A stretch of 64,000 nt of DNA. Origin: Octopus vulgaris. Lineage: Eukaryota. The DNA lies in NCBI GenBank assembly GCA_951406725.2, contig OX597816.1, positions 132,804,001 to 132,868,000 of the forward strand. Reading direction: 5' to 3'. This document shows, piece by piece, positions 3,130-54,172 of this stretch. Under the pieces are notes generated by a model that made no database searches, was not told where the DNA came from, and saw only the letters and a program-made list of their open reading frames with translations. The first letter of the stretch is position 1. The number at the start of each line of letters is the position of its first letter. The position numbers and the translations under genes are program-made.

Positions 3130-3480
3130 ATGCAGGTGTGGCTATGTGATGAGGATTTTTTTCTCAAGCACATGTTTCTGGGTTCAGTTTCATTGTGTGG
3201 TACCTTCAGCAAATGGTTTCTACTATAGCTTCAGGGAAACCAAAGACTTTGTCATGTATATCTGTCTATGTACAAGTGTATATGTGTTTGTACCCAACTA
3301 CCACTTGGCAACCAATGTTGCTTTGTTTATGTCCCCACAACTAAGCAGTTTAGCAAAGAGATCAATAGAATAAGTAACAAGCTTTGAAATAAAAATGCAC
3401 TGGGGTTAATTTGTTTGACTAAATTCTTCAGGATGGTGCCCCAGTATGGTTGCAGTCAAGTGACTGAAATATATAAAAGA
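3130..3480 (+). mobile_element. Decayed tRNA-head SINE (same family as 53570-53965)
   Basis: GTGTGGCTATGTG...GGTTCAGTT head; tail GGTGCCCCAGTATGG..GCAGTCAAGTGACTGAAA..TAAAAGA. Confidence 0.75.
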
Positions 3481-3789
3481 CATACACACATGAGATCAAT
3501 GATATCTGTGTCTTAGTTAAAACTGAAAGCTATGAACATTAAGGTGACTTAGTACTTACCTCAGTCTGGTGGCTAAACAGAAGCAACTTCCAGATTTTCC
3601 AGTAAAACAGCAATTGTGATTGATTAGACAAATACTTGAAAATGTTCCTAGTTGGTATTTCTCTCTGCTTTGTCCTTTACATGCAAAAGACATTGTAAAA
3701 GTCTAAGAAAATATAATTTGTAAAATGAAATCTATTTGAGATTCTTTATTTTTTTAAACATAATATAAACTTTAAATTTCTTTTTGCAG

Positions 3790-12432: not shown

Positions 12433-12820
12433 CATGGTTGTGTGGTAAGAGACTTATGGTTCAGGATTCAGTCCCACTGTGTGACACTTTGGGCAAGTGT
12501 CTTCTACTATAGCCTTTGGCCAACCAAATCTTTGCGAGTGGATTTGGTAGACAGAAACTGAAAGAAGACTATGGCATATATGTTTATGTATACATCTATG
12601 TTTGTCACTGTGTCTGTGTTTATCTTCCACCACCACTTGACAACCAGTAGTGGTGTGTTTATGTCCCTCTAACTTAGCAGTTTTGCCAAAAAGCCAGATG
12701 GAATAAGTATGAGGTTTCAAAAAATAAGTCTTACGGTTGATTTGTTTGACTAAAACACTTCAAGGCAATTCCCCAGCATGGCTTCAATCAAATGACTGGA
12801 ATAAGTAAAAGGTAAAAGAT
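12433..12820 (+). mobile_element. tRNA-head SINE
   Basis: GGTTGTGTGGTAAG...GGATTCAGTCCCACTG head, GGATTTGGTAGACAGAAACTGAAAGAAG body, AAATGACTGGAATAAGTAAAAG tail. Confidence 0.8.
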
Positions 12821-14441: not shown

Positions 14442-14603
14442 GGTGCAGATGTGACTCTGTGGTAAGAAGCTTGTTTCCCAACCACATGGCTCAGAGTTCA
14501 ATCCCACTGAGTGACACTACAGGCAAATGTCTTCTGCTATAGCCTTGGGCAAACCTAAGCCATTTGAGTGGATTTGGTAGATGGAAACTGAAAGAAGCCT
14601 ATC

Positions 14604-14605
<2 letters not shown>
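14442..14605 (+). mobile_element. tRNA-head SINE 5' half (another at 15950-16100)
   Basis: GTGGTAAGAAGCTTG..CCCAACCACATGG..GAGTTCAATCCCACTG. Confidence 0.75.
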
Positions 14606-14647
<42 letters not shown>

Positions 14648-15906: not shown

Positions 15907-15950
<44 letters not shown>

Positions 15951-16661
15951 TGTGTGGTTAAGAAACTGGTTTTGCAACCACATGGTCTCTGGTTCTGTTC
16001 CATTGTATTGCACTTGGAAAAGTGTCTCCTATCATAGTTTTAGGCCAACCAATGCCATGCAAATGAATTTGGTAGACAAAAACTGTATGGGAGCCTTTCA
16101 TATATATACTAACTTAAAAGCCACACTCCATGTGGACTTTTAAGCTAGCTCCTGTGGCGGGCGAATAGCGCTTGCTGCCCAAGACTAAAGACTGTGGCGG
16201 GCTAATAGCACTTGCAGCCTAAGACTATAATACATCTATAATGACTATTGCCCCAGTGGTGTTTGATCAGAGGTTAAGGAAAGATGAGAATTATTTCTGT
16301 AATGCAATCATTCTATTGTTCCAGTCCCAAGTTGAATTCCAACTGTTGGCCAGTTTGTCCTGAAGTTCTTATCTCAATTTAAAATTAACAAAGCATATGT
16401 CATATATTTCTCCCCTTGATCTTTGACATCATCTAACAACTGCCAACCAAAATAGCATGAATCAGCCAAGCTTTACTTGCTAGAAATAGCAACCCAAATG
16501 CTTTTAAATCAGATCCCAATGCTGGATGTTCAAGAACTAAATGAAGGGCAAATTTTGAATCCCAGGATCATCCTGATTCCAAAAAGGTATATTAAGTCTG
16601 TGTAGAGCAAATGTAGACTGAGATACAGGGGTCCCAGCTGCACTGAATTTTGTGTTTATTA

Positions 16662-19600
16662 ATCATCATCATCATCATCATCATCATCGTTTAGCGTCCG
16701 TTTTCCATGCTAGCATGGGTTGGACGGTTCTACTGGGGTCTGTGAAGCCAGAAGGCTTCATCAGGCCCAGTCAAATCTGGCAGTGTTTCTACGGCTGGAT
16801 GCCCTTCCTAACGCCAACCACTCCGAGAGTGTAGTGGATGCTTTTTACGTGCCACCCGCACAGGTGCCAGACAGAGCTGGCAAAATGGCCACGAACGGAT
16901 GGTGCTTTTTATGTGCCACCAGCACGAGGGCCAGGCGAGGCTGGCAATGGACACGAAACGGGGCGGTGCTGGCAACGGTCGCGAAACGGAGGGTTCTCTT
17001 ACATGCCACCGGCACTGGTAACACATCTGCAATTTCCATTGATCGATTTCAATTCTGATCCTCACTTGCCTCAACGGGTCTTCACAAGTAGAGTTTCGAC
17101 ATGCCACCGGCACTGGTAACACATCTGCAATTTCCATTGATCGATTTCAATTCTGATCCTCACTTGCCTCAACGGGTCTTCACAAGTAGAGTTTCGACAT
17201 GCCACCGGCACTGGTAACACATCTGCAATTTCCATTGATCGATTTCAATTCTGATCCTCACTTGCCTCAACAGGTCTTCACAAGTAGAGTTTTGTGTCTC
17301 AAGAAGGGAAGGTATGCATACGTAGGCCGGCTCCATCCCATGTAGAAGGCCACGGGTTATGGACTCACTTGTCCTGCCGGGTCTTCTCGCGCACAGCACA
17401 CTTCCAGAGGACTCGGTCACTAGTCATTTCCTCAGTGAGACCTAAAGTTCGAAGGTCGTGCTTCACCACCTCGTCCCAGGTTTTCCTGGGTCTGCCTCTT
17501 CCACAGGTTCCCTCAACCGCTAGGGTGTGGCACTTTTTCACACAACTATCTTCATCCATTCTCACCACATGACCATACCAGCGCAAACATCTCTCTTGCA
17601 CACCACAACTGATGCTTCTTAGGTCCAGCTTTTCTCTCAAGGTACTTACACTCTGCCGAGTATGAGTACTGACATTACACATCCATCAGAGCATACTGGC
17701 TTCATTTCTTGCGAGCTTACGCATATCCTCAGCAGTCACAGCCCATGTTTCACTGCCATGTAGCATGGCTGTTCGTACACACGCATCATACAGTCTGCCT
17801 TTCACTCTGTGCGAGAGGCCTTTTGTCACCAGCAGAGGTAAGAGCTCTCTGAACTTTGCCCAAGCTATTCTTACTCTAGCAGTTACACTTTCAGCACACC
17901 CACCCCCGCTGCTGACTTGGTCACCTAGGTAACGGAAACTATCAACTATTTCTAGTTTTTCTCCCTGGAAAGTGACGGAAGTTGGTCTCAGAGCATTTTC
18001 AGTGTTTATTGTTCCTGAGCATCTACCACATACAAAAACCATCTTCCTAGTTAGCCTTCCTTTGACATTGATGCACCTCTTATGTGTCCATAGCTTACAC
18101 TTGGTGCATCTTATAGAGTTTCTACCTACACCTTTTCTACAGATCGAGCAGGGCCATCTACCTGAAGGCGTTTGTGATTTGTCTACCTTCCTACTGATTA
18201 TGACTTTGGTTTTAGCTAGGTTGACTCTGAGGCCCTTCGATTCTAATCCTTGTTTCCACACCTGAAACTTCTCCTCCAGTTCTGATAGCGACTCAGCAAT
18301 TAGAGCAAGGTCATCAGCATAGAGGAGCTCCCAAGGGCATCCTGTCTTGAATTCCTCCGTTATTGCCTGGAGGACTATGATAAATAGGAGGGGGCTGAGT
18401 ACTGAGCCTTGGTGGACCCCTACCTCTACCCGGAATTCTTCACTGTACTCGTTTCCAACCCTCCCCTACTAGCAGCGTCCCTATACATGGCCCGCACAGC
18501 TCTCACTAACCATTCATCTATCCCTAGTTTCCTCATTGCCCACCAGATAAGGGATCGGGGGACCCTGTCGAAGGCTTTCTCCATGTCAACAAAAGCCAGG
18601 TACAGGGGCTTATCTTTGGCTAGGTATTTCTCCTGCAGCTGCCTTACCAGGAATATAGCATCAGTAGTACTTTTCCCTGGCACAAACCCAAACTGCATCT
18701 CATCTAAACTAACTCTCTCTCTAATCAGTTGGGCTATGACCCTCTCCGTAACCTTCATCACCTGATCCAACAGCTTGATACCTCTGTAGTTATTTGTATC
18801 TAGGGCGTCACCTTTACCTTTGTAGCAGTTGACTATTATGCTGCTACACCAGTCATTGGGTATGACTCCTTTGTGTATCACCTGATTAACTATACGGGTG
18901 ACTAGGCTATAGCCGACACTACCAGACATTTTGAGCATCTCTGCAGTGATTCCTGATGGGCCTGGGGCTTTCCCTGTCTTCATGCTTCTAATTGCCTTAG
19001 CTACCACGGAACTATCAACTTGGATAGCTGGTCCCTCTGTTGGGTCAACATTCGGCAGACTCTCTTTATCCCATTCATTTTCTTTATTCAGCAACCTTTC
19101 ATAGTGGCATCTCCAAACCTCTCTCTTTGCATCCTCATTTAGCGCAAGTGAACCATCTTCCATGTGAACACACTTCTCTCCTACCACATCACGATTCTCT
19201 CTCACACACTGTCTTGCAACGCGAAGCACCTCCAGTCTTTGGTCCTCACGGCGCAGAACATTGGCAAATTTTTTCTTATCTGCTTCCCCTCTGGCTAAAT
19301 TAACCGGGCTCCTAGCTTCTCTTTTGGCAGTCTGATACAATTCCCTGCTACCCCCATTTTTCCAGACCTTCCAAGCCTGTCTCTTTTCTCTAATAGCCCT
19401 GTCTACAATAGTGTTCCACCACCATGTTATTCTAGGTCGAGAGGGGACTTTGCACCAGCCACAGATCTGGTCAGTGGCTCTCAGCAGGTTGTCCCTTAGA
19501 TACGTCCAGCTGTTTTCTACCCCCTGTGATGCTCTATCCCCTTCTACTTCGTCAGAGGCTTCAAGTAATATGTCCCTAAATCTCTGTCCATTTGCAGGAT

Positions 19601-20064
19601 CTTTAAGCTTCCAGATCCTTCTTCTCCATATTGGTCGTCTTCTGGTTGTCCTCCTAGTCCTGATCCTAAAGTCACTAACTACCAGTCTATGTTGTGGGGT
19701 ACATTCTTCACCTGGGAAGGTTTTGGCATTTATAAGCAGCCATCTCTCCCTTTGCCTTGCAAGGATGTAGTCAATTTGGCTGGTATGTTGGCCCGATCGG
19801 TAAGTGACTAGGTGGCTGGTAGGTTTCCTGAAGTTAGTGTTGCAAATCATAAGATTATTTGCATCGCAGAACTCCAGCAGCCTGGTTCCCTCCTCGTTGC
19901 GGGAGCCATAGCCATAGCCTCCATGTACGCCATGGAAGCCCCCAGCATGTCTTCCAACGTGACCATTGAAGTCACCAGCCACAAAGATAAGGTCTCTGTC
20001 GTTCGTCAACGAGGTAGTCTGCAGTAGAGTGTCAGAATCGGTCTTTCTGTCCATCGGGTAGCAG
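16662..20064 (-). mobile_element. Young 5'-truncated RTE-clade LINE (APE C-terminal half + RT), (ATG)n tail
   Basis: AGDFNGHVG, SQIDYIL and QHRLVV (APE); NYRGIKLL, QFGF, AFVDMEKAFDRV, GVHQGSVLSP, LYADDL (~18309-18326). One frameshift near 18466 and one in-frame TGA at 17686-17688. Confidence 0.95.
17001..17292. repeat. Three near-identical tandem copies of a 98-bp unit in the RTE 3' UTR
   Basis: ACATGCCACCGGCACTGG starts at 17001, 17099 and 17197. Confidence 0.95.
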
Positions 20065-20194
20065 ATATATATATGGGGGTGGGGTCTTTGTGTTTGTCCC
20101 CTTCAATTTGTTTTATTAAATTCCTCAAGGTTATGCCCCAGCTTTGCCACAGTCCAATAGCTGAAACAAGTAAATGATAAGAAATGTAAAATAT

Positions 20195-20780
20195 ATTTTA
20201 ACATCCATTTTTCCATGTTTGCATAAGTAGGGCAGAATTCATTGAAACAGATTTTTTTTCTTTGGCTGGATGCTCTTCTTGTCCTTACCAGCCCTCACCT
20301 GTTTCCAAGTAAGGTAATATTTCCCCTTGGCCTAACATGTTTTCACAGACTATTGGAAGTGAATGACACTGTTTGCATGACTGACAGTCAGTTACAACTA
20401 TCACATGATGCCAAGACAAGAAGACAAAATACACATACACACACAACCTTATAGAGGAGATGTCAAGGGACTGAGATATCTGGTACCTTGCTGTACTCAA
20501 GAAGACTCATCATCCACAACAGAGTGTTAATTCTTCTCCTCCCCACAAAGAAGAGGATAGGCCTGCAAGAGACCTGTGCCAATGGTGTAAAAAGCATTTG
20601 TGCGGGTACCACGTAAACGCATTTGTGCCTGTGCCATGTTAAAAACACCCAGCACACACTGTAAAGTGGTTGGCATTAGAAAGGGCAGCCCATCATAGAA
20701 AACAAGCCAAAATCAACTCTGGTCAAACTGTACAAACCATGCTAATATGGAAAACAGTCATTAAAGGATGATGATGATAC
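20195..20780. mobile_element. Cluster of RTE-tail SINE fragments in both orientations (another at 55580-55790)
   Basis: TTTAACATCCATTTTTCCATG...GGCTGGATGC on one side; GGTTGGCATTAGAAAGGGCA...CCATGCTAATATGGAAAA...GATGATGATG on the other. Both match the RTE 3' end. Confidence 0.65.
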
Positions 20781-20956
20781 ACACACACACAGGCACACAC
20801 ACACATACACATACAATAGTATTCTTTCAATTTCTGTCAGCAAAATTCATTTTAAAGTTTTGGTCAGCCCAGGGCTATAGTAGAAGACATTTATCCTTTA
20901 TCTAGATATGTGGTTGGGATGCAATATCTTATGACAGTCATGCCATATAAATGTAC

Positions 20957-30297: not shown

Positions 30298-31299
30298 TGT
30301 GATATCAAATTTTGGTACAGTCATCAATTTTAGTGGGAGATGGGGTTAGTTGATTATGCTGACCCCAGTATTTGGCTGGAATTTTATTTTAACAACCCCA
30401 AAAGGATAAAAGGCAAAGGTGACCTCGGAATTTGAATACAAAACATTGAAGATAGGGGAAATACCTCTAAGTATTTTGCCTAGCATGCTAATGATTCTTT
30501 GCCAAGGCAAAGCTGACCTTGGCAGGATTTGATCTCAGAATGTAAAGAGTTGGAACAAATACCGCAAAGCATTTTCCTTGACATTCTAACGTCTCTGACA
30601 AAACAACAGCAGCAACAAGGTTAGAAACGAACTTGTTTATAAAGTCAACTGCCAGATTTTTGAGTGAATAGAGATTGCTAATGGCTATCTAACTATAGTA
30701 AACTATTGTTTTTTTTTAATATTCATCTAACAATCTGTAAACAATAGATAAATAAATAAATGATAAATATGAAACAAACAAACAAAAAAAAACTCTTCAA
30801 GAATAAATATGAAATATTTGATCTGCTAATATCAAACATTAAAATTATTGTTTGAACAGTCAAAATTCCATTTTTAGTATGGTAACAATTCGGTGAGTTT
30901 TTGAAGAAAATTTGATTAGTGAAATAACAGTTTGAATTTGAACCTGGATTTTGCATGAAAATGTATGTATCTATGGAGGCATATGAAAATGAATGTTGTT
31001 ATGTGTGTATGTGTAGGAATGTGTTATGTATATATCTATGTATGTGCATGCATATAGCTATACATTTGTATTACTTCTATGTATGTATGAATGTATGTTC
31101 ATACCATGGCACCGGTTTCTTCTGCTAGCCAGCACAGCTGTGCATTAATGTAATTGAATGTGCAAAATTTCGCCAGGCTTAAGAGTCACACAGGGCCTCA
31201 CATTGCACCAATATTGACTCATTTCAATGATTCTTTCTAGCAATGGCTTTGCTTGTATACGAGAAAGCAGCAAAGAAGATGTATGTATGTATGTATATG

Positions 31300-31363
<64 letters not shown>

Positions 31364-35975: not shown

Positions 35976-36764
35976 TTTAAAGAATGTCAGTAATTCAATT
36001 TTCTATCATTTGTCTCTCTCTCACTCTCTCTCTCTATATGTATATAGTATAGTATATGTATACACACACTGATATGTAAGACATATATAACCATCCAGAA
36101 AGAAATATACTGGATGAAAACTAAAATATGTTGGTACGCATGAAAGGATAAACAATAAATTTATGTTTAATTTTCTTTCTCTTTAGCTGAAAAATTCCAT
36201 TTCATTGAATAATATGTCTCTTTTATTAGATCAGTACTTGCATAATTTAATTGCTTAAAAAAAAAAAGAACTGATTAAAATAGATATGGACCTAAAGGCA
36301 GATTTATAATGTAATTTTAAAAATATGACATTTCAGAAATTGTGTTGCACTATCATTAATATTTATATCTACATTAAATGGAGAAATTAGTATTAAGTAA
36401 AAATAATGTTTTCCAAAATTGAATTTTTTAAATATATGTGTGTGTGCATGAGTATATATATGTTTTATTAAATACACCGCAATGTTCAACTTGGTTCTTT
36501 TTCTATTTTAGATTTTTTAAATATTCTAATTGGCTTTTTACAGTTGTTTTGGGACAATGGAGTTCATAAAATTATATTCAATGTTTGTAGGCTTTCACCT
36601 GTGAATTTAGGAATGCTACTGTTTCAAACCACCTATAGAAAACCATTAAGAAAATAGGAAAATAATCTAAAATAAAGAATAAATCATGAACATAGTTGTG
36701 CATTTAATGAAAGCTGCATAAAAGAAAAGCTGTACCCCACATATATGAATGTATGTATATGTAT

Positions 36765-36814
36765 ATAGTGATTCTTTCTAGCAATGGCTTTGCTCATATA
36801 CAAGAAAGCGGCTA

Positions 36815-36854
<40 letters not shown>

Positions 36855-36906
36855 CTTAGCTGCCTTCTCATATATGAGCAAAGCTATTGCTAGAAAGAAT
36901 CACTAT
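36765..36906. repeat. ~55-bp inverted arms around a (TA)n core; single arm copy at ~31227-31275
   Basis: ATAGTGATTCTTTCTAGCAATGGCTTTGCTCATATACAAGAAAGCGGCTAAG and CTTAGCTGCCTTCTCATATATGAGCAAAGCTATTGCTAGAAAGAATCACTAT. Confidence 0.9.
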
Positions 36907-38456
36907 GTATATATACATACACACACACACACATATATATATATATACACACATACATACATACATACATACATACATACATACATACATACATACATAC
37001 ATACGTTCGTACATACATACATATATACATACATATATATATACACACACACATAAACACACACAAACACACACACACATTTTTATGTTGCTTAACTTTG
37101 ATGATCATATGAGAACTGGTGTATTCAAATATGTGTGTGTATAAATATATATATAAACATGCACATATATATACATTTGCATACACACATATGCACTCAC
37201 ACATATATACATATGTGTGTGCGAGTGTATAATATGAAAAAATTAAGGTAAATATAATAAGATTTAAAAAAAACAATTCAATGCTAATTTGGGGAAAGAA
37301 CTGACTCAGTTTCTTTTGTAGCCACCACTACTAAAATCCTATTTCTTTGAAACAAGAAATATATGAAATGGGAAATATGACAATAAATATTTTCCAAAGA
37401 GAATGGCATTTACAAGATTGCTTTTGAATAAACTGAAATTTCACTGTCTGTAGCCTTAATGTAGAAATATATTTTCATATAGTTTTGTCATTGATTTCAT
37501 GAATCTTCTAGAGAATTATTTTGAAATACTGGCTGTAAATTTCTACATGTAATACCAGGACTACAAAAATGTAGAGGATATGGAAGCCCTGAGATAATAA
37601 GATGAGAGTAAACAAAATTTTATTGTTAATTTTATAACTATTTCAAACTTTCATACTGAATTTTTAATAAGAGATACAACGATCAGCTTCTTTATGTTTT
37701 ACAAACTCAATGATTTCTAATATGAAATACAAGGTCCAAAGTTATTGGCAGTGGGGGCATAGTCACTCAAATTGATATCAGTGATTAATTAATACTTACT
37801 TCAATCCTGGATGATTAAAAGTCAGCCTTGGTATGATTTTTAACTCAGAAATTGTTATAGGGATATAAATAAATACCAGAAAGAATTTTAGCTGTAGCTC
37901 TACAAAGTCTGCCAATAAAACCCTTTTGACTTAAAATCCTTTCAGAGATTTTAGACTTAAAAGATAAGAAACAGTCAGAAAAATAAATAAATAGATAAAA
38001 TAAAATAAAATAAATAAATATCTGAAATGTCAGAAGATATTTTAGAAGAAAATATCCTGATTCATAAATATTGGTCCTTAGTTTAATTTAATATTTTATG
38101 TTTAGTGTCTGAAAATACATTATGATAACAAAAATCACATGCCTTGTTTTTATTTGAAACATCCAACAGAAATCCAGTAAAACAATTATTGATATATTTA
38201 TTATTTAAATGTAGGACGAACCAAAGGTTTAGTTTTATGACAGTATGGTCATAAAAATCTGGAAAAAAACCCCCCAAAAGTTGAATGAATGATAAAACAA
38301 TAAAAAATAGACCTTTTTGTATTTTCAGTTATATATATGTATAAAAGAAAATAAACTATTAGATAATATACTTTATTAAAGGATAAAAGAAACCAAAAAA
38401 AGGGAACTGTTATAAAAAAATATTACTTTTAAATAAATTGTGTGAATTTGGTCCGA

Positions 38457-45772: not shown

Positions 45773-48300
45773 TCATATATACTTATATGTATGATGTATG
45801 TGTATATATACATATTATATATATATTATATATATACATGTAGATAGATAGATAGATATTTATACATATATTTATGTATATACACATACATATATACATC
45901 CTTAGTGACTTTCAAATATCACAGTACTTCCAAATGTTTGTACTCTTACATCACAGCATTTCTAAGGTTTCTGTACTTCTATTGCAAGTCTAGTCAAGTT
46001 AAGAAGTTGACCTCTCAATTACAGGGCCTGAATTTGATTGGTCAGCATGCTATCTTGGGTAAATGTTTTCTGCTATAACCTTGAGTTGAATCAAGGTTTG
46101 TGTGTTTGAAATTAGATAGACAGAAGCTGGGTAGAAGAAATTTCTCAGAATGAGTTATATCTGTAATTCTAAGGCCAACTTTGTTCCATACTGAATCATA
46201 AGGATTTTTTTGAGAATTTCATTCAGAGTACACTTGGACTATTCACCATGTACATTATAATATAATAAAATAATAGTTCCATTGATCAAACAGATTGAGT
46301 ATTCATTGTCAAAAGTGATGGAGAATCCATTTATCATTTTTATTCCCAGATCACAGCATCTGAATTATTACACACTAGTATAATACAATATTCTCATATC
46401 ACATGTTTTCCTAATTACAGCAATCCTATATTCTTAATGCATAGACTGTCCTAGATTAATTTAAAATCCCGGATTGGAATCTTCAGATTCAGGATCATTG
46501 CATATCTGAATTACTGTAGTCTTACATTATACATTCTCCTAGATTATAGTTATACCTATACTTTAGTACATCTAGACTCATTTATGTATAGATATAACAC
46601 TTCTTGAGTGCACCTATTCCTGCATTACTGAAGCCCGAGATAAATGGAATGCTTGTGTATCTCTATTCTTAGATTACACTACTCCTACATAGCAGCTACT
46701 TTAAATGAAAGCATTTTGATATTCAAAATTATTTAAAAAATTATTACTAGAAATCATGTTTAAACCTTTTTGTCATCATATTTTTGCTAAAGTACACTGA
46801 CTTTGTTTCAATTAATTTTTTAGACTATGAAGAATTTAATAAAATGATTTTGTCATTATAAAGCTGGTGTTTGGAACAAATTAATATAAAAGTTTGATGA
46901 AAGATCTAAAATTAGATCACTTTGAAGCAGGAGGTTTGTGTCAAACCTAGAGGCAGGTGTGGCCTCAAGTGGGTTGGCATACAAAGAGTTAACTGTTCAA
47001 AAATAAATCTGTTTTTCGGATGAAACTTGTCAAGAATACACTTCAGTGCCATTCCTATCCACTTCCCATTTTCTCCATTATTTACAAACACAAGTATACT
47101 AACATTTAAGCATATGGAAGTAATTTTGAAAAAATAACATGCAATTTTACTTTATGGGAATATTCAACAGATCTTCATTACCCATGGTTTACTACAAGGA
47201 AAAAGATCCAAAACTTTACTCAACAATCACTCCATTAAAAAGACCAAGCACAAATCTAGTCAGATTTATAAGCAACACCAAATTAAGGAAACAATCTAAG
47301 ACATAATTTGAAATTCTTCAAAAAAGTTTAACCAATGCAGACTTAAGGATATAAACAACATTTTCAAGTAATGTAACTTTTTGCCTATTTGTTCATAAAT
47401 CATAAATTTATCACATTTTCATATGTGATATTAATCCAAGCATTCTTGACATGTCAGATTACTAATATTCTTAAAGGACCAGTTAAAACTCTGATCAACA
47501 ATGTTGGAGTCAAATGTCTTTTTATCAAATAAGCAATCCCAAGGGAATTTCATTAAATAGTTTAAGATTTTCTTTTAATATTATTACTTATATCATTTCT
47601 ATCTGATACTACTCATCTAACAAATACTATTGCTAAAACTCATTTAATAAATATTTCCTGGTTTACGTAAATAATTATTATGAAATGACATATATATAAC
47701 CAGGCTGTATTTTGTATAAGTTAACATGTTAAAGTATATATGATATTCTGATACAATTGTTTAATTTCATTTATGTAACTTTGTAAGAGTTTTAGTTAGA
47801 TTAAATGTAATCTTAGAATAACTTATATGTTTTTATCTTTAACTCAACCCTTTGATTTATCAAAAAAGTTCTCACTATAAAGTCAGCAGATGGGTATGTA
47901 ATTGTCAAATACATATGATAAAAGAAAAATCCCTTTTTCTGACACTAACAGAAAACTTCAAGAAAAAGTTACTGAAAATTAATTTTGATTTTTGAGGAGG
48001 GACAAGAAAATAAACTATGCATTTAAAATTTTCGAAACAGTAAATTATAATTTAGTCAAAAAAGCATCTGATTTTAAAGTTAGGATAGAAAGACATGAAT
48101 ATTTATGCAGTTTTCAAAATGTTTACCATTTTACTAGTCCAAGTACAGAAATAAATAGTCATTTATAAACGTATTTATTATTGCATTAGTTTATAAAAAA
48201 TTTATTGTTAAAAATTTTAAACCAGACTTAGTGCATATTCGTATTTTTGCATACTTTTGTATGTTCATAAGATTGTGTGTTTATCAAAAGTAATTTTCAT

Positions 48301-48520: not shown

Positions 48521-49156
48521 GTATGTGTATATATATATGCATATATATATATATATATATATATGTAGATGTATGCATATATATATATACTCATATGATA
48601 TATAATATATATATATATACATCTTTATATATATCGTTATATCAATATACATACATGCATATATAGACACTCATAAACATAGATATATATATATATGCTT
48701 CAACACATAATATATTATTATATATATATGCACACACATAATATATTCATACCAACAAAAATACAAATATATATGTATGTATGTATATACAGATGTATTG
48801 TGTATGTTTTCAAGCATATATACATATGCAGCTTCTTGTGCATTTTGTAGATTTCTATAATGAGAACCTGCTTTTAGTAAGAGTACACACACAATACATC
48901 TATGTATCTATGCAAATATATTATTATATGGATACATCTATGTATGTATGTATGTATGTATGTATGTATGTATGTATGTATGTATTTATGTATGTGTGTG
49001 TGTATACATACATACATGTATATATATATATATATACATACATATATACACACACATAAGTATATGCATAAATATATAATCATATATTTGTATATATATG
49101 TATATGTATGAACCTATATCCATATATATATATCTATATATCTATCTATCTATCTA

Positions 49157-49190
<34 letters not shown>

Positions 49191-49336
49191 AAAAGCAATA
49201 AAGATTCAAGTTAATTTAAATGAAATTACTTGAATATGGTACCTAACTTAGATGCACCAAAAAAAACTATACTGATTTAACAATACAGTAATGTGGGGTG
49301 ATTATAAGCGAGAATGAAGCAACAAGAATGGATAGG

Positions 49337-49427
49337 TTTTAGTACAATCGTTTCATACAAGGACAGGTTTTATTAAAAGTTGCAAAAATTACAGCATATA
49401 AACGTGTCCCGTACTCATCAGCTAAAA
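49337..49427 (-). ncRNA. Type I hammerhead ribozyme (mirror copy)
   Basis: Exact reverse complement of 49816-49906. Confidence 0.82.
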
Positions 49428-49815
49428 TACATGTGAGTTCTCTAGACATCCTAGTGGTTGAGGCTATACTCATGAAGTAATGTAGATAATTAAGTAACAT
49501 AAACAGATTTCAAAAGTTCATTAAAGTTCTTTAAAGATGATGTACAGTCTTATCACAGAATTTTAAAAAAGTCTTAATAGCATCACAGAGAAGGTGACCT
49601 AATCCATAGTGCACATATGAATTCATATGTGCACTATGGATTAGGTCACCTTCTCTGTGATGCTATTAAGACTTTTTTAAAATTCTGTGATAAGACTGTA
49701 CATCATCTTTAAAGAACTTTAATGAACTTTTGAAATCTGTTTATGTTACTTAATTATCTACATTACTTCATGAGTATAGCCTCAACCACTAGGATGTCTA
49801 GAGAACTCACATGTA

Positions 49816-49906
49816 TTTTAGCTGATGAGTACGGGACACGTTTATATGCTGTAATTTTTGCAACTTTTAATAAAACCTGTCCTTGTATGAAACGATTGTA
49901 CTAAAA
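49816..49906 (+). ncRNA. Type I hammerhead ribozyme, Penelope-type
   Basis: TTTTAG CTGATGA GTACGGGACA [39 nt] TGTCCTTGTAT GAA AC GATT GT A CTAAAA. Perfect 6-bp stem I, ~10-bp stem II, intact core, predicted cut after A49900. Confidence 0.82.
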
Positions 49907-49936
49907 ACCTATCCATTCTTGTTGCTTCATTCTCGC

Positions 49937-49978
<42 letters not shown>

Positions 49979-50423
49979 TTATGTATGTATGTATATGCAT
50001 GTGTATGCATGAATATACATATATATATATATATGTATGTATATATGCATACACATGCATACATAAGTGTGTGTGAATAAAAGTGAAAGAAAAAAGGATA
50101 TAATTAAAGACAAAGAGAAAGAGAAAGAAAAAGGGAGAGGAATGGGAACATATATGTGCCACTATGTGAATAAACACACAAATATGCATATACATGAATT
50201 TTTAAAATTATTATTTCGTTTTGAAAATTAAATTGCCTTTAAATGTTTGAATTTCTCACTATGTGTGTGTGTGTATGTATAATATGTATATATGTGTTTG
50301 TGTGTGTGCATATGTAAATATATATATATGTATACACATTTATATGTACATAAACATACATATATACACACACACATATATATATATACACACACATATA
50401 TATATATATATATGCATCTATAT

Positions 50424-50487
<64 letters not shown>

Positions 50488-50545
50488 ATATGTATATATA
50501 TGTATATAGATATATATGTATATAGATATATATGTATATATATGC

Positions 50546-50578
<33 letters not shown>

Positions 50579-50596
50579 CACACATGCATATGTACG

Positions 50597-50630
<34 letters not shown>

Positions 50631-51524
50631 ACATATATACATGTATATATGTGCTTATATATACATATCTTTCAGTAACATCAACAAAAACACCTAACAT
50701 TAACATTAATATTAACTGAGAAACTGAGAAACACTTTTGGACCCAGATGTAACAAGATCTAAACATTTGCATACCAGATGTTAACATTCATTTTGTAGTA
50801 CAAATATCAATGCCAACAGATCAGATGTAAACATTCATAAGATTCCTTTAACACTGTAATGTTTCATGAAATAATAAGTTAGAAATACATAATTAATGTT
50901 TGTATGAATGACTTTTTTTAAAAAAAAGGCAAGATACATAAAAAGGGAAAAAAAACTAGGAAAATAAATCCAACCATTTCTCACTTTAGTAAAATGTCTC
51001 TTGACTACGTACATCAAGATTTGAAAAGAACATTATAATAAATCATGGAGAACCAAATATTACTAATAAAACCAAATATATTTTTTTAACCAATGTGTTG
51101 GAACAAGCAGAGGTGGATTTGATTGGTTCCCCATAGATCACATGGTTGGTTCATTAATAAACCCTACCCCATGATAAAACACACATGATTCAATTTTTTT
51201 GATCCACATGGACATTTTGTCCTCTTCTAATATTACTTTTGTCGGTGGGTTGATTCAAAAAAGAACAATGTCATTTTATTAAATAAAGAAATAAACATAG
51301 CAGTATTATCAACAACATCAACAATGATAACAATATTCTGAACATATATTTAAAAGACTGTCTCCCTTTTCTAAAAAGTAGCATGTTTATAGTAATGCCA
51401 TTGATCGTTTTCAAAGACATTGCCACCTTGGCCATCATCACTGGTTTGTTTTGAGGGTTATTGCAATGGTTTTTGTTCATTTGTTCTAAACCAGGGTATA
51501 TTGACTATGTAACTTCCAATATGG

Positions 51525-52154
51525 TTAACCATTTGATCCAAGAGTAGGATCTGATGTTGTTCCAATGTATCCATAGTTAACATGCTCTTTAACACCCAGA
51601 TCTTCTTGTGATATCTTCAGTGCTGGGTTAATTTTACCATTCATTTCTAGTGTTGGTGTGATTGCTGTCAGTTCATTCGCTGGTTCTCTCATGGCGAGGG
51701 CAATAACTTCATCTGGTATGTTGACAATGCACATGAAAACGTCATAGCGCCGTGGTAGATGGGCATTCTCAAAGAGGTATTTGAATACGTACGAAACACC
51801 CACTATTGTTCCAAGAGAAAGAAACATGGCTAAGGTTTTGAATGGAAACATTTGAAGATGTTCATCCTCATCATAGAAAGGATAAAAAATGATGGGTTCA
51901 ATAAAAAGTGTGGGTTCCCCACCTGAAAGGCGCATGAATATGCCAACTATATAGCCAGCTAACGATCCATAGGTGTTTGCCCACTCTAAATACACAACAG
52001 TCACAAGTTGGGGGAACAATATCACGTAGACAAAATCGGAGCAAAGATACCAAAGATCATAGACCGATGTCACCTTTAATGCCATTGCAGTTGCGAGAAC
52101 ACCAACACCAAAAATAGCTACACGCATCACCCAAAGGATTTCTTGATCCGATGC
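51525..52154 (-). CDS. SLC5A7: High-affinity choline transporter 1, terminal coding exon
   Basis: ttttcag| acceptor. [11 protein letters not shown]...[17 protein letters not shown]...NTYGS...RLSGGEP...FPFKTLAM, then TAA. AATAAA on minus at 51280-51275. Confidence 0.97.
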
Positions 52155-53569
52155 CTGAAAAAGAAAACAAGGACAACATTTACAAAAACCTGATGAATAG
52201 TTATAAAATTTTAGCACAAGATATAACAATTTGCATTAAGAGAGTTAAAAGTAAAACTGTCAGAGGACTGTCACACCTATTTCTACTTCAAACTAAAGAC
52301 CATGTCACTCAGAAATAATTGCTGGAATTTGGAGTAGAAAATTTTGATGGTAAATAAAAAGGTAGCAGGAAGGAAGACAATCAGATTATCTCTAATGGTG
52401 GAATCACAGATATAAGATAGATAAAATTGCATCTTAATGGCTAGAAAAGATATCAGTTTAATTAATTGCTAAATGATACCCACATTGAAGTGCTGTTCAA
52501 AAATCTGGGCTAGTATTGCTTGCTGCTTTGTATAAAAACACTTAAAACTGTTTATTGTTATCCTAAATCGCTTCTAAAGCAAACCTGGAGATCTGTTTTG
52601 GAAGCAATTTAAAATATTTTTATGTATATTTCCTGGATGATAGTCAAAAACTCACTCTATGACATCCCGCAACCTGTAGCTAACATATTCGTTGTTTCTG
52701 CTCCTTATCTTGCAGAAAGTGAATATAAATATATTCCTGGATATGATTCTAGACTGTTACATATAACATTCCTAAAACTGAAACTGACAAGGTTTACCAT
52801 CGATTTAAGAAAGTTTGTATCTAATGAATGTGAAGGCACATGGTTTAGTGATTAGGATATTTGGCTCAATGTCATAAAGTCTTGAGTTCAATTCCTAGCA
52901 GTGCATTGTGTTTTTGACCACGATACTTTATTTCATGCCTACTCAGTTGGCAAAGAGGAATCGTACCTGCAATTCTGTGTCTCACTGAATCTCACTAAGA
53001 ACTACATCAATCCTTTGGAGACAGCCTCATTTGGAGTTTCAATGCCAAGAAGATGGAGCCCTTTTCACAAGCTCTACAGAAGGCATGCACTTATTTTTCA
53101 AGAAAATTATAAAATATAGAGTAATTACTTTACATATATAAAACTATATATATTATTGTAGGAAATTGAATGAACTAATACACTATTCTTTGTCATTTGA
53201 CTTTTTGACTGATAGAGAGGCATTGTCGTCTCCTAAAGGTTATGGGTACACATGTTTGTGAAGTGCTCATCCACTTGCATGCTAATTTCACAAGCAGGCT
53301 GTTTGGTTGATTGAATCAACTGGAACTCGTGTTGTTGTAATTGATGAAGAGCCAGACCATCCAATGGGAAGATGATGCTGATGTATCAGAACTGATATGG
53401 GGCTTTGTGAGGAGAATAAACTTTTTAAAATTCTTTCTGAGAAAAAATTTCTTTCTCCCTTAGAAAGAGTTGCTTGTGAAAAAGTCACTTGTGAAAGAGT
53501 TGCTTATGAATGAGTCACCTGTGAAACATTGATATTATTTTCTCCTCATAACATACAAATTCTCTTTTT

Positions 53570-53965
53570 TTTCTTTTACTTGTTTCAGTCATTTGACTGT
53601 GACCATGCTGGAGCACCACCTTTAGTCGAGCAAATCGACCCCAGGACTTATTCTTTGTAAGCCTAGTACTTATTCTATCGGTCTCTTTTGCCGAACCGCT
53701 AAGTTACAGGGACGTAAACACACCAGCATTGGTTGTCAAGTGATGTTGGGGTGACAAACACAAACACACACAACACACACACACGCATATATATACATAT
53801 ATACGACGGGCTTCTTTCAGTTTCCATCTACCAAATCCACTCACAAGGCTTTGGTTGGCCCAGGGCTATAATAGATGACACTTGCCCAAGATGCCACACA
53901 GTGGGACTGAACCTGGAACCATGTGGTTGGTAAGCAAGCTACTTACTACACAGCCACTCCTACAC
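53570..53965 (-). mobile_element. Well-preserved full-length tRNA-head SINE (3' fragment also at ~41868-41955)
   Basis: Minus: GGAGTGGCTGTGTAGTAAG A-box, GGTTCAGTCCC B-box, internal (TG)n, tail GACTGAAACAAGTAAAAGAA. Confidence 0.85.
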
Positions 53966-54172
53966 CAAATGACCTAAACTTGCGAACTTCTCTTTGTGAA
54001 TTTCACTGGTAAGCATTACTGCCAGTTGGATCAAACTCTAGTGTCTTATGAGATGAAATTGAATCAAGTACATAGACACAAAATAGATTCAAGCATCAAA
54101 TTTTAAGCTTACAAACCATAAACCTTACACACTAAGAGACCTGAAAGAAGTCAATACAAAAAAATTACTTAC

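Follow-up and report, generated by a model that had tools for sequence, protein, structure and literature searches.

A long palindrome lies downstream of the choline transporter gene SLC5A7 in a 64,000-nucleotide stretch of Octopus vulgaris DNA (the whole of which is here called the window), and a hammerhead ribozyme motif is present on each of its strands. This raises the question of what kind of event produced the structure and whether it acts on RNA made from the neighboring gene. The original prediction described a 629-bp palindrome, read it as a very recent Penelope-like insertion, and speculated that RNA editing of the resulting duplex could gate cleavage of the SLC5A7 mRNA. Our analysis suggests that the locus is a 748-bp head-to-head pair of 5'-truncated repeat copies within a (TA)n tract, that a Penelope-like element (PLE) likely inserted it, that the hairpin is likely edited by ADAR, and that the ribozyme is predicted to stay unfolded. 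We put the probability of this combined reading at roughly 0.72.

Comparison of the two arms bore out the description of a spacerless palindrome with one homopolymer indel. The left arm (314 bp) and the right arm (315 bp) are exact reverse complements with 0 bp of spacer, and their sole mismatch is a run of 4 T at 49337-49340 that corresponds to 5 A in the right arm, leaving 0 substitutions in 314 positions. No other long perfect palindrome is present in the 64-kb window, where the runner-up has 20-bp arms that are mostly TA, and no further copy of the arm was found there. The palindrome lies 1589 bases from the SLC5A7 stop codon, confirming its placement 1.6 kb past the stop, and RNA made from it would fold into a 314-bp hairpin. 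The inserted unit is larger than the palindrome first reported. Sequence of the arm's repeat family extends past the left arm for a further 119 bp, so that the unit spans 49189-49936. The right arm terminates 36 nt past the predicted cleavage site and directly abuts (TA)n. A search for a target-site duplication at the insertion returned TA repeats only. The tail is made up of an AC-rich stretch followed by two predicted stem-loops (fold of 49189-49345, z of -3.35; 0/200 shuffles folded equally well). A frame check of the tail revealed no ATG on the ribozyme strand, and neither arm nor tail contains an open reading frame. The EcoRI word at the center was considered as a sign of a ligation artifact and set aside, since every spacerless palindrome has a self-complementary center; the AATT at this center, moreover, comes from the repeat family's own sequence. 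Coordinates of the features are collected in Table 1.

Table 1. Features of the insertion and of the adjacent SLC5A7 gene (positions within the window)
Feature	Position	Strand	Details
Tail (3' extension of the left arm only)	49189..49307	-	119 bp; high contig depth in 2 DNA runs
Left arm, 5'-truncated copy of a high-copy repeat	49308..49621	-	ribozyme-sense on the SLC5A7 strand
Right arm, inverted copy	49622..49936	+	ribozyme-sense on the plus strand
Fold-back center, self-complementary word AATT	49620..49623	.	contig loose ends at 49623 in 4/4 runs
Type I hammerhead motif	49337..49427	-	core 49421-49415 and 49354-49351; predicted cut after 49343; descriptor
Mirror hammerhead motif	49816..49906	+	core 49822-49828 and 49889-49892; predicted cut after 49900; descriptor
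(TA)n-type microsatellite left of the insertion	48916..49188	.	likely target site
(TA)n-type microsatellite right of the insertion	49937..50046	.	any target-site duplication hidden inside
Last coding exon of SLC5A7 (high-affinity choline transporter)	51525..52154	-	stop 51525-51527
First AATAAA	51275..51280	-	245 nt past the SLC5A7 stop
Next AATAAA, inside the element	49369-49374	-	

The ribozyme motifs were located with a hammerhead descriptor, which returned one match per strand, no other hammerhead anywhere in the 64-kb window, and none in 5000 dinucleotide shuffles of the arm. This confirmed the claim of one ribozyme per strand, and the layout likewise confirmed that transcription of either strand would yield the antisense ribozyme copy first and the sense copy second. 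Each motif has the core CUGAUGA...GAAA and a GUA cleavage triplet. Stem I is 6 bp long, stem II spans ~60 nt and has G-U as its closing pair, and stem III consists of 2 bp capped by a near-palindromic tetraloop. All 13 of 13 core positions agree with the consensus excerpted from PMC3088659. Rfam gave no match at its gathering score in the 64-kb window, and none of its 21 weak matches in 49622-50000 was a hammerhead; because Rfam does not score the motif, the ribozyme call rests on our own descriptor and a constrained fold. When the isolated arm was folded freely, stem I was absent, and it was present in a 96-nt segment. The self-duplex of stem III was calculated at -7.8 kcal/mol. A 22-base ribozyme pattern had 0 matches in metagenome and viral contigs. 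The hammerhead core is intact in the DNA, and the cleavage site is a prediction from the motif.

In order to place the arm in its repeat family, contigs from four of 24 listed sequencing runs were compared with positions 49189-49650 (462 bp). Two of these runs are guessed to be DNA (X2 and X5) and two RNA (X6 and X13); X5 and X13 share a species label. The two DNA runs yielded 690 and 737 contigs matching the 462-bp stretch. Summed contig depth, which is not a copy number, was 1e4 to 1e6 over 49189-49588 in the DNA runs (the lowest listed contigs had depths of 8-35) and 1e4 to 3e5 over the tail. The arm and tail are thus a very abundant repeat in octopus, one that we infer to be dispersed. In 4/4 runs the contigs depart from the window sequence at 49623 and share a nearly identical continuation, of which 30 letters were shown. 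Beyond 49623, other copies of the family extend upstream in sequence unlike that of the window, so the center of the palindrome is the 5' truncation point. The continuation is unlike the start of the tail, which indicates that the 433 bp are not a tandem unit. The 4-T and 5-T forms of the homopolymer are both common in the family, the 5-T form accounting for 100348 of 302174 depth units in X2. No description of the family was found in open PMC papers, in bioRxiv, or in one PMC8557442 supplement file, and three short motifs of the element were absent from that file; the octopus hammerhead family is apparently undescribed.

Two further observations concern the tail. At 49225 the window has an A and all depth of X2, X6, and X13 has a T, which could reflect a private mutation or an assembly error; because all X6 and X13 depth there is T, the RNA tail contigs lack the window allele. 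Loose ends at 49281-49291 (within 49237-49300) appear by eye to be other subfamilies with a different, self-complementary-looking sequence, and these subfamily differences hint at a conserved stem-loop with compensatory change.

The layout of the locus agrees with published excerpts on PLE insertions (PMC8557442, PMC3846280, and PMC4209133), in keeping with the proposed Penelope-like origin of the inverted truncated arms. PLE insertions are described as carrying an inverted 5'-truncated copy beside a pLTR; just one of their ends has a tail, 30-40 bp long, and a preference for (TA)n targets hides duplications (Craig et al., PMC8557442). Palindromes at head-to-head junctions have been interpreted as self-priming (Arkhipova et al., PMC3846280), and Cervera and De la Pena (PMC4209133) reported hammerheads paired on opposite strands at distances of ~100-700 bp. 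The locus has several traits of endonuclease-positive (EN+) PLEs: a type I hammerhead motif near the 3' end, an inverted 5'-truncated head-to-head copy with a palindromic junction word (a junction seen directly in the window only), a (TA)n target on both sides with any duplication hidden, and a multicopy family whose dispersal was deduced from contigs. Family sequence extends at one end only, for 119 bp, which is three to four times the 30-40 bp reported for PLEs. In EN+ PLEs the pLTR and tail overlap the start of the open reading frame; here the sense strand has no ATG after the ribozyme, although an intron or a later start may account for this. Neither the reading frames of the locus nor pattern scans of metagenome and viral contigs linked a reverse transcriptase (RT) or GIY-YIG frame to the family. 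Taken together, this analysis suggests that the insertion is likely an ordinary PLE insertion.

From published PLE work, a plausible course of events would begin with an element-encoded RT/GIY-YIG protein, acting in trans, nicking the (TA)n tract. Reverse transcription has been reported to start at two internal sites, the tail being the stretch between them (Frangieh et al., PMC11167929). Reverse transcription from two internal template sites would here leave two 3' ends 119 nt apart, and the truncated product could then self-prime at the 4-base AATT word to generate the inverted arm during insertion. Taken as an ordinary PLE stub, the locus adds a hammerhead family that is very abundant in octopus and has an unusually long tail, and this 119-bp tail bears on where PLE reverse transcription starts.

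The family might instead be another nonautonomous hammerhead element, such as a non-LTR retrozyme monomer or a SINE-like unit, inserted by chance as a fold-back. The very high copy number, the locus without an open reading frame, and the tail without an ATG would fit such an element, as would the near-canonical 6-bp stem I and short near-palindromic stem III, which resemble those of tandem metazoan hammerheads; a preprint, in the part excerpted, also argues that retrozymes are themselves PLE derivatives (bioRxiv 10.64898/2026.07.22.740005). The same preprint, however, defines retrozymes by head-to-tail tandems, and the octopus copies are head-to-head. A head-to-tail tandem with at least two same-strand hammerheads was not found in the 64 kb, which hold one hammerhead per strand. 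The 433 bp form no tandem unit, given a continuation past 49623 that does not resemble the start of the tail, and a one-sided tail in a (TA)n target is described for PLEs (PMC8557442). We therefore regard a retrozyme or SINE-like origin as unlikely and retain a PLE insertion as the source of the unit.

The duplex was also proposed to be an ADAR substrate. Changes of A>G and T>C made up 49/68 variable places in X13 (24 and 25, respectively) compared with 10/31 in X5 (Fisher p 0.0003), and 12/33 in X6 compared with 2/21 in X2 (p 0.054, a weak difference); in both comparisons the DNA runs come from other individuals and the RNA status of X6 and X13 is guessed. Among the 40 variant rows shown (of 78), 8 were absent from both DNA runs, and all 8 were A>G or T>C changes within the arm. 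T>C at 49351, which is A15.1 of the minus-strand motif, was found in 71.1 of 175.3 depth units in X13 (41%), in 9.65 of 477.6 in X6, and in 0 in both DNA runs, making A15.1 a candidate A-to-I site. G was the 5' neighbor at none of the 8 RNA-only sites (background, 36/210), too few sites to carry weight.

The distribution of changes along the unit was consistent with editing of a duplex. Arm contigs of X13 carried up to 34 other letters in 207 nt, whereas the longest tail contigs carried 3 in 149 nt in X6 and 2 in 126 nt in X13; a variant form of the tail side was represented by two shorter contigs, with 8 and 9. A changed arm beside a little-changed tail is what would be expected of a fold-back with an unpaired tail. 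As a point against, an unedited X6 contig that matches the arm exactly over 195 nt (depth 75.6) was no deeper than a tail contig joined to (TA)n (depth 73.7), contigs that many loci could yield; two arms would give double the depth unless editing takes half. The signal belongs to the repeat family, which has many copies besides the one at SLC5A7, and the claim holds at least at that level: double-stranded RNA of the family is likely an ADAR substrate. In the excerpted survey of 19 species by Porath et al. (PMC5625713), octopus gave one of the two strongest hyper-editing signals and was omitted from the repeat-annotation analyses; a palindromic Harbinger repeat of Xenopus tropicalis was an ADAR target and lizard Penelope was hyper-edited. 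In open PMC papers and bioRxiv, no account was found of octopus SLC5A7 being edited or of ADAR acting on the ribozymes of retrozymes or PLEs. Should the editing signal be borne out against matched DNA, the family would supply perfect duplexes in a strongly hyper-edited animal, and its ribozyme core would be one that ADAR rewrites in nature. It is a doubtful but conceivable extension that fold-backs of the family are a major ADAR substrate in octopus, that editing of A15.1 disables the ribozyme, and that the SLC5A7 copy tunes the transporter mRNA by way of an edited hairpin in the 3' UTR, which may vary between individuals or species.

Whether any of this concerns SLC5A7 depends on transcription reaching the element. 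The last coding exon matches human CHT1 (E 3e-48), and a cluster bearing the name Octopus bimaculoides shares 99% identity with it. The AATAAA said to lie ~245 nt after the stop was confirmed, and it had been suggested to end the mRNA ahead of the palindrome. Beyond this signal, 12 of 15 RNA-guessed runs (4 studies) contained 0.49-0.69 of the sampled words of 49190-51270. The remaining 3, together with 1 recorded RNA run, contained 0.03-0.05 of the words (X20 and X22-X24) and were counted neither for nor against transcription. Element words make up 0.26-0.36 of 49190-51270, and element plus TA-tract words make up 0.52-0.59. Even the strict bound of 0.59, at which all element and TA words would come from elsewhere, was exceeded by 3 of the 12 runs, from two studies; because their shares exceed this bound, these 3 runs must hold nonrepetitive downstream sequence. 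Read-through past the first AATAAA is likely, as gauged for UTR continuity by word shares alone. The signal is present as described, but it is likely not an absolute end of transcription. Two more AATAAA motifs on the minus strand (48201-48206 and 48174-48179), ~3.3 kb past the SLC5A7 stop and beyond the insertion, are distal poly(A) candidates. Judging from the contigs, some SLC5A7-strand RNA would pass the first AATAAA and reach the element, and such RNA would zip up from the center before the sense ribozyme is complete.

Transcription of this kind invites the notion that the hairpin has been co-opted as a double-stranded RNA control element of the SLC5A7 3' UTR that works without ribozyme cleavage, with retention, decay, or small-RNA output set by editing and poly(A) site choice. 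An effect on SLC5A7, if true, would matter for cholinergic neurons. The word shares in the 12 runs speak for co-option, as do the limit of 0.36 on the share of element words and the restriction of the editing signature to the arm in the rows shown. Against it, editing of dispersed repeats is routine in long UTRs (PMC5625713, as excerpted), and only 3 of the 12 runs clear the 0.59 bound if the element and TA words come from elsewhere. Co-option is quite improbable on this balance, and the hairpin is most likely a passive by-product of insertion rather than a switch.

A fold-back artifact of assembly or library preparation, which the original prediction had flagged, would mean that the chromosome holds a single arm or two arms with a spacer. 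Consistent with this, the exact GAA|TTC center was present in none of the listed contigs of the four runs, with no joints among those listed; the arms differ in one homopolymer only; and the tail base at 49225 matches no depth in three runs. Logan assemblies use a word size of 31. A hairpin contig built from 31-letter words would be expected to end at 49636, in a bin that also holds family contigs, and for this reason the run data cannot decide the center. Zero depth past 49636 in X2, X6, and X13 was discarded as junction evidence, as it is expected with or without the junction. One contig of an independent DNA run (X5 record 24; 66 nt, 49566-49641, 10 gaps, depth 29.4) has, as inferred from lengths, exactly the length, end, and gap count of a hairpin contig centered on CAT|ATG, 5 bases inside; it falls below the 31-letter bridging rule, and the match was judged from lengths rather than letters. 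It may represent this very locus, recorded under another species label and lacking 10 bases at the center, or, alternatively, a second insertion folding back at a neighboring word.

Further points argue against an artifact. The ends of the unit are unequal in a biologically patterned way, with 119 bp of real family sequence added to the left arm; the unit is bordered by (TA)n at either end; each homopolymer length, 4 T or 5 T, is common in the family; and a fold-back read would be expected to mirror the flank too. An artifact is thus very unlikely. The age of the insertion calls for more caution than the term "very recent" conveys. The 0 substitutions in 314 positions set a bound of ~1% on arm divergence (rule of three), an upper bound only, and data under another species label may include a nearly identical fold-back. 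The arms of palindromes can be homogenized. Because arm identity gives an upper bound and homogenization can occur, "young" is the safer term.

The predicted masking of the ribozyme by its own duplex was upheld by energy calculations. Pairing of the 91-nt ribozyme segment with its antisense copy was worth -151.8 kcal/mol, more than tenfold the -11.3 kcal/mol of the constrained ribozyme fold. We then asked of the models whether editing would release it. With edited A read as G, stem I formed in 0/150 folds at 0-50% editing. A harsher model, in which an edited A could not pair at all, sets an upper bound on unwinding; stems I and II were recovered in 0/60 of its folds, and arm-to-arm pairing stayed at 0.61 or above. 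These simulations are minimum-energy folds without proteins or kinetics, and they predict that the ribozyme stays inactive and unfolded in the hairpin. The core and cut site include six A's open to editing, and in 3/30 runs at 30% editing all six were intact. A15.1 is itself the candidate edited site, at 41% of X13 depth. Activity falls at least tenfold when 15.1/16.1 are changed (PMC3088659); PMC3923133 offered nothing on position 15.1. In metazoan PLEs, a hammerhead whose stem III is unstable requires a dimer on the same strand, and no cleavage was seen with a lone minimal motif (PMC4209133, as excerpted); the palindrome supplies no same-strand second copy. Because editing would damage the core and a same-strand partner is absent, editing would more likely silence than gate the ribozyme. 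An ADAR-opened duplex whose hammerhead cleaves SLC5A7 mRNA is accordingly extremely improbable, despite an intact core in the DNA, a sense ribozyme on the SLC5A7 strand in the left arm, and heavily changed RNA-like contigs (34 other letters in 207 nt).

The window contains several other repeats. Positions 36750-36921 have ~60-bp inverted arms around a (TA)n spacer (91% self-complementary, without a hammerhead), and a lone arm-like copy lies 5.5 kb away at 31228-31314; the two may be MITE-like or another (TA)n-associated fold-back. An imperfect long hairpin at 1-177 (72% self-complementary, -98 kcal/mol over 200 nt) is probably a MITE. A LINE on the minus strand (17689-20099) has endonuclease and RT domains over two frames plus a PHD-like match, and three ~98-bp head-to-tail copies (17001-17292) lie near its 3' end. 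An interspersed family of up to ~360 bp, 70-82% alike and in both orientations, occurs at 12456-12817, 53567-53966, 14442-14629, 3276-3491, 15925-16108, and 20773-20892; one copy sits in an SLC5A7 intron.

Among known systems, the locus is most readily compared with EN+ PLE insertion units (PMC8557442 and PMC3846280, as excerpted). Both have head-to-head truncated copies with a short palindromic junction word, a tail at one end, a duplication-hiding (TA)n target, a hammerhead near the 3' end, and many dispersed copies. The octopus unit differs in its 119-bp rather than 30- to 40-bp tail and in having no ATG and no linked open reading frame. The likeliest parents are (TA)n-targeting, hammerhead-bearing PLE clades such as Neptune or Hydra. 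Naiads, which occur in octopus, share the (TA)n targeting but are described as having an N-terminal endonuclease and as being without canonical hammerheads, unlike the complete type I motif found here, and the element is probably not a Naiad.

The ribozymes share with metazoan PLE hammerheads (PMC4209133, excerpted text) the type I fold and the U-rich sequence on the 5' side. Their stem II is likewise longer than usual, their stem III is short, near-palindromic, and suited to dimers, and paired copies occur on opposite strands within 100-700 bp. They differ from them in a stem II of ~60 nt, a closing G-U pair in place of the conserved G-C, no unpaired base between A9 and stem II, and a stem I of 6 bp rather than 4-5. 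Animal non-LTR retrozymes (bioRxiv 10.64898/2026.07.22.740005, in part) are likewise noncoding, high-copy, of probable PLE origin, and equipped with a type I hammerhead, but theirs is a head-to-tail arrangement with two same-strand ribozymes, in contrast to one per strand here. As in self-folding ADAR repeats (PMC5625713, in the excerpt), a palindromic repeat here provides a tight duplex without a nearby partner, and clusters of A>G changes appear in RNA; the difference is that the octopus palindrome is generated insertion by insertion, by a retroelement that bears a ribozyme. The fold-back structure itself is a known by-product of PLE insertion.
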